Positions 1 through 13,411 of a stretch of 13,411 nt of DNA are shown here, piece by piece. The notes beneath the pieces were generated by a model. That model worked only from the letters and a program-made list of their open reading frames with translations, was not told the DNA's origin and did not search any database. The stretch spans positions 1 to 13,411 of IMG/VR virus record IMGVR_UViG_2548876950_000004; one strand, written 5' to 3'. A program made the translations under genes and the position numbers. Positions within the stretch are counted from its first letter, which is position 1. The number at the start of each line of letters is the position of its first letter. Origin of the DNA: a virus. Lineage: Duplodnaviria; Heunggongvirae; Uroviricota; Caudoviricetes.

Positions 1-54
1 CTGGCAGCCTGAGTTCACAGATAAAACACTCTCCAGGAAACCCGGGGCGGTTCA
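1..54 (-). mobile_element. Terminal inverted repeat of an IS3-family insertion sequence (element body lies left of the window)
   Basis: Positions 2-54 are the exact reverse complement of 13359-13411. Read inward the end begins TGAACCGCCCCGGG, the TG...-type terminus I recall for IS3-family elements such as IS629. The identity runs to the window edge and stops abruptly at 54/55. Confidence 0.5.
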
Positions 55-157
55 AAACGCCCATGATTTTACAGGCTTTTGATACGTTGCTGAGTTCTTC
101 AGCCAGATTGAGCAAACCGGCTTTGTGTTTGATAACGGGATTGGTAGTATGAAGCAT
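55..157 (-). pseudogene. N-terminal fragment of an HTH-type protein, truncated at the IS junction
   Basis: ATG at 155-157 (reverse strand) preceded by GAGGT. Translation MLHTTNPVIKHKAGLLNLAEELSNVSKACKIMGV then runs straight into the IS-end sequence. The LAEELS-VSKACKIMGV stretch looks like the first helices of an HTH motif. Confidence 0.35.
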
Positions 158-280
158 GAGAGTTACCTCGTGTTTTGTATAAGGATTCGACACCCATATC
201 AAAACCGGTAACTCTCAACCTTTCAAGGCTCAGTGTCAGATCAAGTCGCGACTAATACACTCAATTCCATCATAAACTTC

Positions 281-409
281 TCAGTTGTTAGCTTTTGCCG
301 AACTGGAAAGCGCCTGTTTAAACTCACTGAAGCTGAGAGCTTCTTCGCCTTCGGCAAGGCCTTCGAAGTATTCTTCGTAAGCCTTTTTCATGATTGTGTC
401 GAAATCCAT
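281..409 (-). CDS. Small hypothetical protein, 42 aa (possibly YdaG-like)
   Basis: ATG at 407-409 (reverse strand) with AGGTGA 5 nt upstream; translation MDFDTIMKKAYEEYFEGLAEGEEALSFSEFKQALSSSAKANN, stop at 281-283. Below the 60-aa ORF-track cutoff. Sits upstream of the repressor like the small genes of Rac-type prophages. Confidence 0.4.
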   Translation of the reverse strand: MDFDTIMKKAYEEYFEGLAEGEEALSFSEFKQALSSSAKANN

Positions 410-419
410 ATCACTCACC

Positions 420-566
420 TTAGTTTCTTTCCAACCAGCGACGTGCGCCAGCTTCGGTTTTAAACGATTTGCTTTTGGTATACGTCATGGCGGTGAATGT
501 GCCGTCCTGATTGGGAAACACGCCACATACCAGAGATTCGTTGTTGCCAAGATCGATAGTATCCAT
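420..566 (-). CDS. Small hypothetical protein, 48 aa (possibly YdaF-like)
   Basis: Internal start MDTIDLGNNESLVCGVFPNQDGTF... of the 420..629 ORF, with GAGGT 4-5 nt upstream. The longer 69-aa form has no obvious ribosome-binding site. Confidence 0.4.
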   Translation of the reverse strand: MDTIDLGNNESLVCGVFPNQDGTFTAMTYTKSKSFKTEAGARRWLERN

Positions 567-816
567 GTTGACCTCATTTCCCCTTAACGCCGGGTGGCGG
601 AACGTTTTATCTACTGCGCTTTGTATCAATCAACAACTGCCGTCATGTTCGTATGCCTCAGGCTGGCTACTTAGCCCTGTTCAGTGGCTGGATAACTCGA
701 GGTATTGTCCAGCCGTTCTCTGGTGGGGCGTTGTTTGGATATGCTTATTAAACACAATGCGTTTTCTTATGTAAACACGAAATGTGTTTTGTGGTGAGTG
801 TCATATGATGATGGTA

Positions 817-841
817 CAAAAAAGCCCGCTGATAGCGGGCT
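817..841 (-). terminator. Intrinsic terminator downstream of the repressor gene
   Basis: Hairpin AGCCCGCT-GAT-AGCGGGCT (823-841) flanked by an A-run on the plus strand (817-822), which is a U-run after the hairpin on the minus strand. Confidence 0.6.
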
Positions 842-871
842 GATTGGCATATTACTGTGATAGCAAGATCA

Positions 872-1291
872 TTACTCCGGTGGGGGATTATCTTTAAGCC
901 TGCCTCTCAAATATTTTTCTACATACTCATCGATTTCTTTTAGCCGGACTTCAAATAGCTCAATCATTCGTTGTTGTTCTGAGCCAGGTAGCTGGTTAAA
1001 CAACTCAAGAAGTTTTCGTTGGGATTCATTTAACCACAATTCAGAAGATTCCTGTTCTCCAAATAGGAGCTCAGGAGGAGATATGCCAAGTGCCTTTCCC
1101 AATACGACAGCGTCATGCACTCCAACATTTCTGCTGCCCGCCTCATAGTTACCTATACGCGATTGCGTCCATCCGCAGATTTCAGCAAGTTTTCCTTGAG
1201 ATAAACCAAGCTTCTGCCTGCGCTCTTTAAGACGCATTGCAATTTTGTCATTGAGCCTACTAGCGGCAATTTTTTCGTTTTCTTTTTCCAT
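872..1291 (-). CDS. CI-like prophage repressor, XRE-family HTH, 139 aa, no S24 peptidase domain
   Basis: HTH segment LGLSQGKLAEICGWTQSRIGNYEAG; divergently oriented to a Cro-like gene across a 96-bp operator region; C-terminal part is charged/coiled-coil like with no Ser-Lys autocleavage domain. Confidence 0.8.
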   Translation of the reverse strand: MEKENEKIAASRLNDKIAMRLKERRQKLGLSQGKLAEICGWTQSRIGNYEAGSRNVGVHDAVVLGKALGISPPELLFGEQESSELWLNESQRKLLELFNQLPGSEQQRMIELFEVRLKEIDEYVEKYLRGRLKDNPPPE

Positions 1292-1387
1292 TGCATCCTT
1301 GTATCACGAATCGTGATTTACATAAAACACAAAACAGCTTGACCATATAACACAAGGTGTGTTTAAAATTGTCATCGGAGGTTTTCA
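1292..1387. promoter_or_regulatory. Immunity-switch operator/promoter region between divergent repressor and cro-like genes
   Basis: Contains palindrome ATCACGA-A-TCGTGAT (1303-1317), imperfect palindrome AACACA-AGG-TGTGTT (1349-1363) and a TTGACC -35-like hexamer (1336-1341). Confidence 0.6.
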
Positions 1388-1630
1388 ATGAACAAAATTT
1401 CAACATATCGAAAACAGCTTGGGCTGTCTCAAAGACAACTTGCTGTTCAGTTAGGGTGGATACAAAGCCGACTGGCAAATTACGAAGCAAATTTTCGTAC
1501 CCCTGGACTAGAGGAGTGCAGAAAAATTGTTTCTACCCTTAATCGGCTTGGCGCTCATTGTGGACTTGACGATGTATTCCCCCCAGACGGTAAGCATAGC
1601 GAAAACAGCATAGGAGCGGTTGATTCATGA
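1388..1630 (+). CDS. Cro-like HTH regulator, 80 aa (YdaS-like)
   Basis: GGAGG 6 nt upstream of the ATG. HTH LGLSQRQLAVQLGWIQSRLANYEA shares the GW-QSR-NYEA recognition-helix motif with the repressor. Stop overlaps the next start (ATGA at 1627-1630). Confidence 0.75.
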   Translation: MNKISTYRKQLGLSQRQLAVQLGWIQSRLANYEANFRTPGLEECRKIVSTLNRLGAHCGLDDVFPPDGKHSENSIGAVDS

Positions 1631-2049
1631 AAATCAGGCATGAGCACATCGAATCAGTGTTGTTAGCCCTGGCAGCCGAAAAAGGGCAGGCGTGGGTCGC
1701 TAACGCAATTACTGAAGAATATCTGCGCCAGGGGGGCGGCGAATTGCCCCTTGTACCAGGCAAGGACTGGAACAATCAGCAGAATATCTATCACCGTTGG
1801 TTGAAAGGTGAAACGAAAGCGCAAAGGGAAAAAATTCAGAAACTGATCCCTGCGGTTCTGGCAATTCTTCCGCGCGAGCTGCGTCACCGACTCTGCATCT
1901 TCGATACCCTGGAACGCCGTGCATTACTGGCGGCGCAGGAAGCGTTGAGTACGGCAATTGATGCGCATGATGATGCAGTCCAGGCCGTTTACCGGAAAGC
2001 ACATTTCAGCGGTGGTGGGTCGCCCGGCGATTCTGTCGTAGTGCATTGA
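1627..2049 (+). CDS. YdaT/CII-like prophage regulatory protein, 140 aa
   Basis: Translationally coupled to the cro-like gene; N-terminus MKIRHEHIE and the position after cro match my recollection of the Rac ydaS-ydaT arrangement. Identity is from recalled family features only. Confidence 0.5.
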   Translation: MKIRHEHIESVLLALAAEKGQAWVANAITEEYLRQGGGELPLVPGKDWNNQQNIYHRWLKGETKAQREKIQKLIPAVLAILPRELRHRLCIFDTLERRALLAAQEALSTAIDAHDDAVQAVYRKAHFSGGGSPGDSVVVH

Positions 2050-2126
2050 TTGAAATTAATCGTGCCGGATTGTTTTGTTCGGTATCAGTTAAATGTAACG
2101 CTGCGAGCGTTACAAGGTGAAAACAA

Positions 2127-12425: not shown

Positions 12426-12426
12426 A

Positions 12427-12503
12427 CCGCCACTAGCTCATCAGGAAAGAGCGTCAACCCTTTAAGTTGAGTGTGCGAGGTTCGAGTCCCCGGTGGCGGT
12501 CCA
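12427..12503 (+). tRNA. Atypical tRNA-like gene, anticodon UUU (Lys-like), possibly a pseudo-tRNA
   Basis: Acceptor CCGCCAC/GTGGCGG with CCA end, D-arm and TTCGAGT T-loop present, but C at position 33, a C1:G72 start and one T-stem mismatch. Confidence 0.45.
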
Positions 12504-12505
12504 GT

Positions 12506-12581
12506 GCCGACTTAGCTCAGTAGGTAGAGCAACTGACTTGTAATCAGTAGGTCACCAGTTCGATTCCGGTAGTCGGCACCA
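12506..12581 (+). tRNA. tRNA-Thr (UGU)
   Basis: Acceptor GCCGACT/AGTCGGC, anticodon loop CTTGTAA, T-loop TTCGATT, 3' ACCA; one T-stem mismatch. Confidence 0.65.
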
Positions 12582-12584
12582 TAT

Positions 12585-12659
12585 GCGGGCATCGTATAAT
12601 GGCTATTACCTCAGCCTTCCAAGCTGATGATGCGGGTTCGATTCCCGCTGCCCGCTCCA
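12585..12659 (+). tRNA. tRNA-Gly (UCC), glyT-like
   Basis: Acceptor GCGGGCA/TGCCCGC, anticodon loop CTTCCAA, T-loop TTCGATT, 3' TCCA; matches my memory of host glyT. Confidence 0.75.
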
Positions 12660-12866
12660 GTTAGAGTCTTTCAGTCTGCGATGATGGGAAATCCCGGAGT
12701 GACTGAAAGACGTTTAGGTTATGAATGATCGCTTTTTTTTGCAAAATTGCTGTGCAGAAATACTAACCTTCGGGCAGGCGATCATTCATAAGCACTCTGC
12801 TTTTATTCCGATTAACTGTGGGTGGTTTGTTGGATAGAGTGCTTTCCTGACTGTAGATCCAATTTC

Positions 12867-12891
12867 GCCCGCTTTTGCGGGCTTTTCTTTT
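12867..12891 (+). terminator. Intrinsic terminator downstream of the tRNA cluster
   Basis: Hairpin GCCCGC-TTTT-GCGGGC followed by TTTTCTTTT. Confidence 0.7.
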
Positions 12892-12951
12892 CAAATCCCT
12901 TTCATCTCTCAGTGTAAAACTACGCCATCCGTTATTTGCGGAGGTGAGGCT

Positions 12952-13167
12952 ATGAAATCCATGGACAAAATTTCAACGGGCATTGCCTACGGCACCTCCG
13001 CAGGCAGTGCTGGCTACTGGTTTTTACAGTGGCTTGATCAAGTCAGTCCGTCACAGTGGGCTGCGATTGGTGTACTGGGGAGTCTGATTCTGGGCTTCCT
13101 GACTTATCTGACAAATCTGTACTTCAAAATCAGAGAAGACAAGCGTAAGGCTGCACGGGGAGAGTAA
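12952..13167 (+). CDS. Phage 21-type class II holin (pinholin) with dual-start motif, 71 aa
   Basis: [27 protein letters not shown]...[13 protein letters not shown] closely matches S21 as I recall it, including the M-K-S-M dual start (12952 and 12961); GGAGGTGAGG ribosome-binding site. Confidence 0.85.
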
Positions 13168-13171
13168 TTCA

Positions 13172-13358
13172 ATGACTCAAAACTATGAAGTGATTGTGAA
13201 AGGGATCCGCAATTTTGAGAATAAAGTTACGGTAACTTTAGCGTTACGGGACAAAAAACGCTTTGACGGTGAAATTTTTGACCTGGACATCTCGCTGGAC
13301 CGTGTTGAAGGTGCCGCGCTGGAGTTTTATGAGGCAGCAGCCAGAAGGAGCATCAGAC
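13172..13358 (+). pseudogene. Lysis-region gene (possibly YdfR-like) truncated by the IS insertion
   Basis: ATG at 13172 with GGGGAGAG upstream; ORF MTQNYEVIVKGIRNFENKVTV... runs in frame into the IS-end sequence at 13359 with no stop before the window edge. Family name from memory only. Confidence 0.4.
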
Positions 13359-13411
13359 TGAACCGCCCCGGGTTTCCTGGAGAGTGTTTTATCTGTGAAC
13401 TCAGGCTGCCA
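13359..13411 (+). mobile_element. Terminal inverted repeat of an IS3-family insertion sequence (element body lies right of the window)
   Basis: TGAACCGCCCCGGGTTTCCTGGAGAG..., the exact reverse complement of window positions 2-54. Confidence 0.5.

Follow-up and report, generated by a model that had tools for sequence, protein, structure and literature searches.

We propose that the stretch of DNA analysed here (13,411 nucleotides, positions 1 to 13,411 of the Caudoviricetes record IMGVR_UViG_2548876950_000004 in IMG/VR; hereafter the window) is the centre of a decayed lambdoid prophage lying by ttcA, bounded by two identical, inverted copies of the insertion sequence (IS) IS1203, each of which is at a deletion. 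We put the probability of this reading at about 0.88. The left copy, IS-A, would lie between the remaining 3' part of recE and what is left of an older IS481-family element, the 5' part of recE, ydaE, kil and most of the IS481-type element having been lost. The right copy, IS-B, would lie between ydfR, broken off after codon 62, and the 3' end of Rz, with the loss of exactly 1059 bp that include the endolysin gene.

Two inverted copies of IS1203 bound the window

The outermost nucleotides of the window form a perfect inverted pair. Positions 2-54 and 13359-13411 are 100% complementary over 53 nt, with 13,304 nt between them, and identity breaks off at 54/55 on the left and at 13358/13359 on the right; a repeat search and a reading of both ends agree here with a first-pass annotation that had been made from the letters alone. 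We calculate that approximately 1e-24 perfect inverted pairs of 53 nt would be expected by chance in 13.4 kb. The terminus, TGAACCGCCCCGG, has no further copy inside the window when up to two mismatches are allowed. The open reading frames (ORFs) at the two edges cross the junctions without a stop, as had also been noticed, and since they enter the same reading frame of the IS they share an acquired tail, LNRPGFPGECFICELRLP.

It is the edges of the window that cut the repeat to 53 nt. The window corresponds to positions 2890187-2903597 of NZ_CP148401.1, from E. coli Z1323CEC0019 (chicken, South Korea), with 100% coverage and a single mismatch at window position 773 (A here, C in NZ_CP148401.1), which is intergenic between the DUF1391 gene and the cI-like gene; the stretch is therefore from a different assembly or from a very close relative. 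We took the region of NZ_CP148401.1 with 18 kb added on each side (L001, in which the window occupies 18001-31411) to read the flanks. In this near-identical complete genome the arms are 1310 bp long, or 1312 bp if a fortuitous self-complementary AT is counted.

Both arms are complete copies of an element annotated by RefSeq/PGAP, on opposite strands, as an IS1203 family transposase with programmed frameshift. We take the name IS1203 from the RefSeq product line; the element is regarded as an isoform of IS629 (Rump et al. 2011, PMC3271280). The IRR ends of IS-A and IS-B point inward and the IRL ends outward, and the two copies are 100% identical to each other and to a third copy, IS-C, which splits uspF. 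The element has the size of an IS3-family member and imperfect terminal inverted repeats of the TG...CA type: the IRL begins TGAACCGCCCCGGAAATCC... and the IRR TGAACCGCCCCGGGTTTCC..., the first 13 nt being identical and the imperfect match extending to about position 25. In IS-A, orfA (16799-17125 in L001, 108 aa) overlaps orfB (17122-18012, 296 aa), and the Rfam ALIL pseudoknot RF01497 lies at 17080-17196 (121.5 bits, E = 1.2e-32). The Pfam domains found are HTH_Tnp_1 in orfA together with HTH_21 and rve (9.3e-28), and the NCBIfam model for IS3 transposases, NF033516, is matched at 316.3 bits against a cut-off of 160. At each end the window closes with the tip of an IS1203/IS629 copy; the two copies are identical and opposite in orientation, and the element is a common one in E. 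coli. The earlier suggestion of an IS3-family-type terminus proved right, the 53-mer being the IRR end of this element, as did the suggestion that two opposite copies of one IS flank about 13.3 kb. The frameshifted orfA/orfB pair looked for in the flanks is present on both sides, so that the repeat belongs to an element with its own transposase and not to the native prophage. The coordinates of these and other features are collected in Table 1.

Table 1. Features of the window and of its surroundings in NZ_CP148401.1 (L001: window with 18 kb added on each side)
Feature	Position	Strand	Remarks
IRR end of IS-A, final 54 bp	window 1-54	+	body of the element left of the window
IS481-family stump, 205 bp	window 55-259	-	terminal inverted repeat 234-259 (TGTCAGATCAAGTCGCGACTAATACA), leader and first 34 transposase codons (157 to 56), cut by IS-A
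Native lambdoid prophage segment	window 260-13358		colinear and on the same strand as in related prophages; 96-99% identity over 432-12503
Class II holin (P21 S type), intact	window 12952-13167	+	PF04971, 1.4e-35
ydfR (DUF1327), cut after codon 62 of 116 by IS-B	window 13172-13358	+	PF07041, 5.2e-31, profile 1-62 of 93; alignment with YdfR of PEC41
IRR end of IS-B, final 53 bp	window 13359-13411	-	body of the element right of the window
IS-A, left IS1203 copy, 1310 bp	L001 16745-18054	+ (transposase)	
IS-B, right IS1203 copy, 1310 bp	L001 31359-32668	- (transposase)	
IS-C, third IS1203 copy	L001 47534-48843	-	splits uspF

IS-A and IS-B are each at a deletion joint

Target duplications of IS629 are 3-4 bp long (PMC3271280), and duplications of this length had been proposed as a check on the two copies. 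None was found at either: the flanks of IS-A read cat and aaa, those of IS-B gac and atc. By contrast, three control copies each have a clean 3-bp duplication, namely IS-C in uspF (CTC on both sides), a copy of 97.6% identity inside ydfR in strain EPSSH018 (TAC on both sides; L006 4244-5553) and a copy of 94.9% identity to the left of ydfB in strain MS 119-7 (GTC on both sides; L007 863-2172). Without a duplication, IS-A and IS-B are not at pristine insertion sites, which leaves the identity of the element unaffected. Each of the two marks an IS-associated deletion rather than a simple insertion. The earlier statement that the IS cuts a gene at each edge is therefore right as to the truncated ORFs and wrong as to a simple split, as there is no duplication and the genes on the far sides are different ones.

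On the right, an Rz-type lysis gene of which 35 codons at the 3' end remain lies on the far side of IS-B, followed by terminase and tail genes. The closest uninterrupted lysis cassette is that of PEC41 (L005), at about 97% identity, to which the IS-B flanks map at 2100 (inner) and 3160 (outer), so that exactly 1059 bp are missing here. What has gone is the end of ydfR (54 codons), the complete rrrQ lysozyme (endolysin) gene and the initial two-thirds of Rz. It had been supposed that the IS merely parted the holin from a downstream endolysin; a holin without an endolysin is indeed what remains, yet against PEC41 the endolysin gene has been deleted and not just separated. The further suggestion of a lysis defect is borne out: the prophage beside ttcA is lysis-defective, with the holin kept and both the endolysin and a complete spanin gone.

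On the left, window positions 157 to 56 encode 34 residues that recur unchanged at the N-terminus of the transposase ORF of an IS481-family element on plasmid pAA of strain 042 (L003). Sequences that carry the annotation IS481 family transposase match 55-160 at 100% identity in many E. coli chromosomes and plasmids, and 55-259 is 98-100% identical to IS481-annotated copies. At 98% identity the alignment extends over window 55-260 with pAA and over 55-266 with the chromosome of FEX669 (L004). The elements in these two measure about 1190 bp and have 26-nt terminal inverted repeats, TGTATTAG...CTAATACA. Homology to related prophages starts at window position 260, immediately after the IS481 terminal repeat. 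The pAA copy is itself frameshifted; its ORF halves match NF033577 at 119.7 and 146.4 bits over profile positions 2-155 and 157-283, each half scoring below the whole-protein cut-off of 224 bits. The stump in the window, with its 34 codons kept, gives HTH_29 at 21.9 bits, which is below cut-off. The remnant at 55-259 has both an IS481-type DDE transposase, to the extent of these codons, and a terminal inverted repeat. The "HTH fragment" of the first-pass annotation (55-157) is accordingly the start of an IS481-family transposase, and a phage regulator at this place is ruled out. IS-A adjoins the stump of an older IS481-family insertion. A 100% identical N-terminal sequence of such a transposase is present on a 39-kb plasmid of the same strain, NZ_CP148403.1, at 7280-7385, which is a possible source of the element.

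To the left of IS-A lies a 993-bp 3' remnant of a recE-type PD-(D/E)XK nuclease gene that lacks the N-terminus, followed leftward by recT, ralR, xisR, intR and then ttcA. Compared with the prophage of strain 2013C-3342 (L002), L001 up to 16746 corresponds to L002 up to 10559 and window position 432 to L002 position 14001, so that about 3.4 kb are absent here: 2.16 kb of recE, a hypothetical gene, ydaE, kil and a spacer. With ML35 as the reference, this loss comes to about 4.4 kb.

The four IS junctions were shared by no other strain in a junction search among 5,426 complete E. coli genomes. Three candidate matches were rejected in this search. In EPSSH018 and, as judged from the hit pieces, on plasmids UTAK-1 and OkiPb01711, the hits consist of two pieces that span more DNA than the query, and in EPSSH018 the IS is at a different position. 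The copy in EPSSH018 lies 114 bp downstream of the IS-B junction in ydfR, in the same orientation, and is an independent insertion of an IS629-type element; the copy just left of ydfB in MS 119-7 is likewise an independent IS629-type insertion, near the spot of IS-A. These near-coincident insertions suggest that the two regions are hit repeatedly or are tolerant of insertion.

The enclosed segment is native prophage DNA

Between the two elements the gene order is ydfB, DUF1391, cI-like and cro-like regulators, ydaT, replication genes and DUF1627/DUF977, followed by a methyltransferase gene, DUF551, hok, nin-type genes, ORF6N, a gene with a helix-turn-helix (HTH) domain (11608-12321), four tRNAs, the holin and the truncated ydfR'. 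In megablast comparison of L001 with the 2013C-3342 prophage, all high-scoring segment pairs are on the same strand and in order. They cover recT/recE, then window 432-4573, 4726-8266 and 8712-12503, and then the region after the lysis genes. Overall the layout is the canonical lambdoid one, int-xis-recT-recE' followed by cI-like/cro-like-replication-nin-type-tRNAs-holin and then Rz'-terminase-tail. Comparison with related prophages gave no sign of composite transposition or inversion of the 13.3-kb interior, which is native DNA of the prophage, in position as well as in orientation. The comparison of related genomes that had been recommended did reveal the uninterrupted genes (in 2013C-3342 and PEC41); an inverted segment was not found among them.

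Several observations concern the interior itself. Three 21-bp palindromes, TGTAACGC-N5-GCGTTACA, are located at window 2094-2114, 2286-2306 and 2493-2513, with a spacing of about 200 bp, just upstream of and within an ORF at 2127-2909 that is a replication-module gene preceding ydaV. None would be expected by chance, and all three are conserved in the 2013C-3342 prophage; a protein that acts in replication or regulation could bind at them. Between the HTH-domain gene and the holin, a cluster of four tRNAs occupies window 12350-12659 and comprises a tRNA with a CAT anticodon (Met according to ARAGORN, Ile according to PGAP), Lys-TTT, Thr-TGT and Gly-TCC. The 2013C-3342 prophage carries Ile, Arg and Arg tRNAs instead, and as homology to it ends at 12503, the tRNA cassette is a swapped module. 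At window 6134-7555 there is one open ORF of 473 aa where RefSeq shows pieces of a DUF551 pseudogene and a short DUF551 gene; this may be a repeat-containing DUF551 gene that the annotation pipeline has divided.

Outside the window, to the right of IS-B, the gene for the terminase large subunit is followed after 4 bp by a fragment of tail gene L (L001 35345-37502). Since the two abut, the portal, head and tail-shaft genes are missing, and this joint, at which no IS is present, is an additional, IS-independent deletion in the same prophage.

How the joints may have formed, and alternative readings

One explanation for the two joints is that, as IS1203 expanded in the strain, an extra and directly oriented copy would have inserted close by, and that RecA-dependent recombination between the two direct copies would then have removed the interval between them. 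The outcome would be a single hybrid IS with its left flank from one parent and its right flank from the other. Another possibility is a transposase-driven deletion through aberrant strand transfer, or a deletion next to the IS of the IEE (IS-excision enhancer) type. We infer that the RecA route is the most likely, at roughly 55:35 relative to the transposase or IEE-type route. An expansion would fit the IS1203 load of the chromosome, in which at least 40 pieces were matched for both IS ends among the matches listed; together with the private junctions, this suggests that the expansion was recent and large.

Several points weigh against the proposal that both copies sit at deletions in a decayed prophage. 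No intermediate was found, such as two direct copies with intact duplications, and without one the mechanism of deletion is inference. In IEE events, going by their descriptions, the IS is usually lost along with the DNA next to it, and here it is retained, which counts against that sub-mechanism and is not decisive. The flanks were read from the near-identical complete genome, from which the window's own record differs at position 773. The missing DNA, finally, was gauged on related prophages of 88-98% identity and not on a direct ancestor, and the size of the left loss is approximate.

The window stops 54 and 53 bp into an IS, as would a short-read contig interrupted by a multicopy repeat, and the IS is indeed multicopy in this chromosome, with the at least 40 pieces for both ends among the matches listed. 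The true neighbours might then differ from those described here. Recombination within the IS alters no junction, so such a contig cannot show an inversion or another linkage. We nevertheless consider an assembly or window artefact very unlikely, as a complete circular chromosome holds the whole window and both full IS copies with outer flanks from the same prophage, and as both inner junctions lie inside the window and are real sequence.

A different question is what the arrangement may do. Given the opposite orientation of IS-A and IS-B, a recombination event that pairs the two would turn the 13.3 kb round and could not delete it, and to call the arrangement inversion-prone is a reasonable prediction from its architecture. 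The immunity-replication-holin module might go further and act as a recombination flip-flop with a flipped minority, or the whole unit, with an IRL at both outer ends, might be mobilisable. In the former case the module would be reversed in part of the population and uncoupled from the leftward early and rightward late operons. The orientation observed, in one assembly, is the native one only, and we see a slim chance that either holds.

Two independent, simple insertions of IS1203, each splitting a gene whose other half lies beyond the IS, would explain why the edge ORFs enter the IS without a stop, and the same type of IS has inserted at nearly the same prophage spots in other strains. The 3-bp duplication that the three controls possess is, however, missing from both copies, and the far sides hold the 3' remnants of recE and Rz and not the halves of the truncated genes, which makes this account highly improbable.

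Two identical inverted IS copies around a cargo segment also recall a composite transposon, in which case the 13.3 kb and both copies would have moved in as one unit. The first-pass annotation had called the arrangement composite-transposon-like, which is apt for the architecture and fails for the history. The outer flanks, ...ggcat and atcctc..., share only the 2-bp AT, which falls short of a 3-4 bp direct repeat flanking the unit. The enclosed DNA is native in place and orientation, belonging to the same prophage as int-xis-recT-recE' on the left and Rz'-terminase-tail on the right in canonical order, and the unit occurs in this single context only in the 5,426 genomes searched. Both outer ends are, moreover, IRL, and circle formation by IS3-family elements normally pairs IRL with IRR. 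Arrival as one unit is exceedingly improbable. An inversion of the segment that has already taken place, through recombination of IS-A with IS-B, is hardly credible either: 1310-bp identical inverted repeats are good RecA substrates and an inversion would yield unmatched flanks, but the reverse-complement flank pairs that it predicts fail (cat with gtc, ttt with atc), undoing it rejoins no gene, and gene order and strand are throughout those of related prophages.

Comparison with known systems

The decay of prophages through IS629-type elements is already well documented, and this locus is a further instance in another strain. Its wider significance is small; the arrangement is real but ordinary. 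It serves as a worked example of how IS629-type elements erode and immobilise a prophage, in that the endolysin gene and parts of the recombination region and of the kil region have been removed, while the holin, the immunity region and the NleG-like (DUF1076) genes were spared by the IS-linked losses. The process may go on: IS-B and IS-C, which lie 16,175 bp apart as direct repeats, enclose the truncated Rz', terminase, tail genes and three DUF1076 (NleG-like) genes, and recombination between them could delete about 14.9 kb of late and NleG-like genes, a predicted instability. The locus also holds two lessons for the reading of contigs. One that ends a few dozen bases into a multicopy IS tells which end of the IS points inward, and not the neighbours on the far side or the orientation of the segment; and an "HTH fragment" beside an IS may be what remains of another one.

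Among the insertion sequences of O157:H7, IS629/IS1203 dominates. In O157, 62% of the IS629 copies are in prophages and a 3-4 bp duplication was found at only 21 of 47 (PMC3271280), and passages of PMC9943667 that cite Ooka et al. 2009 and Kusumoto et al. 2011 tie IS629 to gene inactivation and genomic deletions. The copies described here resemble those of O157:H7 and related attaching-effacing lineages in being 1310-bp IS3-family elements with orfA/orfB and a -1 frameshift, in the preference for prophages, in the frequent loss of the duplication, and in the gene inactivation and deletions that immobilise prophages. They differ in the host strain, here the chicken isolate Z1323CEC0019, in their strain-specific junctions and in a copy number that is apparently higher (at least 40 pieces among the matches listed, against the 23 IS629 copies quoted for O157). 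The IS629 deletions associated with IEE, to go by the parts of PMC9943667 and bioRxiv 10.1101/2023.06.07.543989 that deal with them, range from a few nt to more than 40 kb and start at an IS629 end, as do the losses seen here; those in Kusumoto et al. 2011, as far as the same passages describe them, go with excision of the IS, whereas both IS copies are kept here.

Composite transposons of the Tn5 and Tn10 type likewise have two identical inverted IS copies that bracket a segment. In contrast to these, the present arrangement has no duplication around the unit, its cargo is a resident prophage, its outer ends are IRL, its IS is a copy-out-paste-in element of the IS3 family, and there is no evidence of movement. 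Another likeness is to the cryptic prophages Rac and Qin of E. coli K-12, which are defective too. With Rac the prophage shares its integration neighbourhood, ttcA with intR-xisR-ralR-recT-recE, and with Rac and Qin the early genes ydaT, ydaV, ydfA/ydfB-type and ydfR, an rrrQ-type lysis cassette (in its relatives) and a defectiveness that stems from deletion. It is set apart from them by the tRNA cluster, by the NleG-like DUF1076 genes and by a decay that is marked by IS1203 and the remnant of an IS481-family element.

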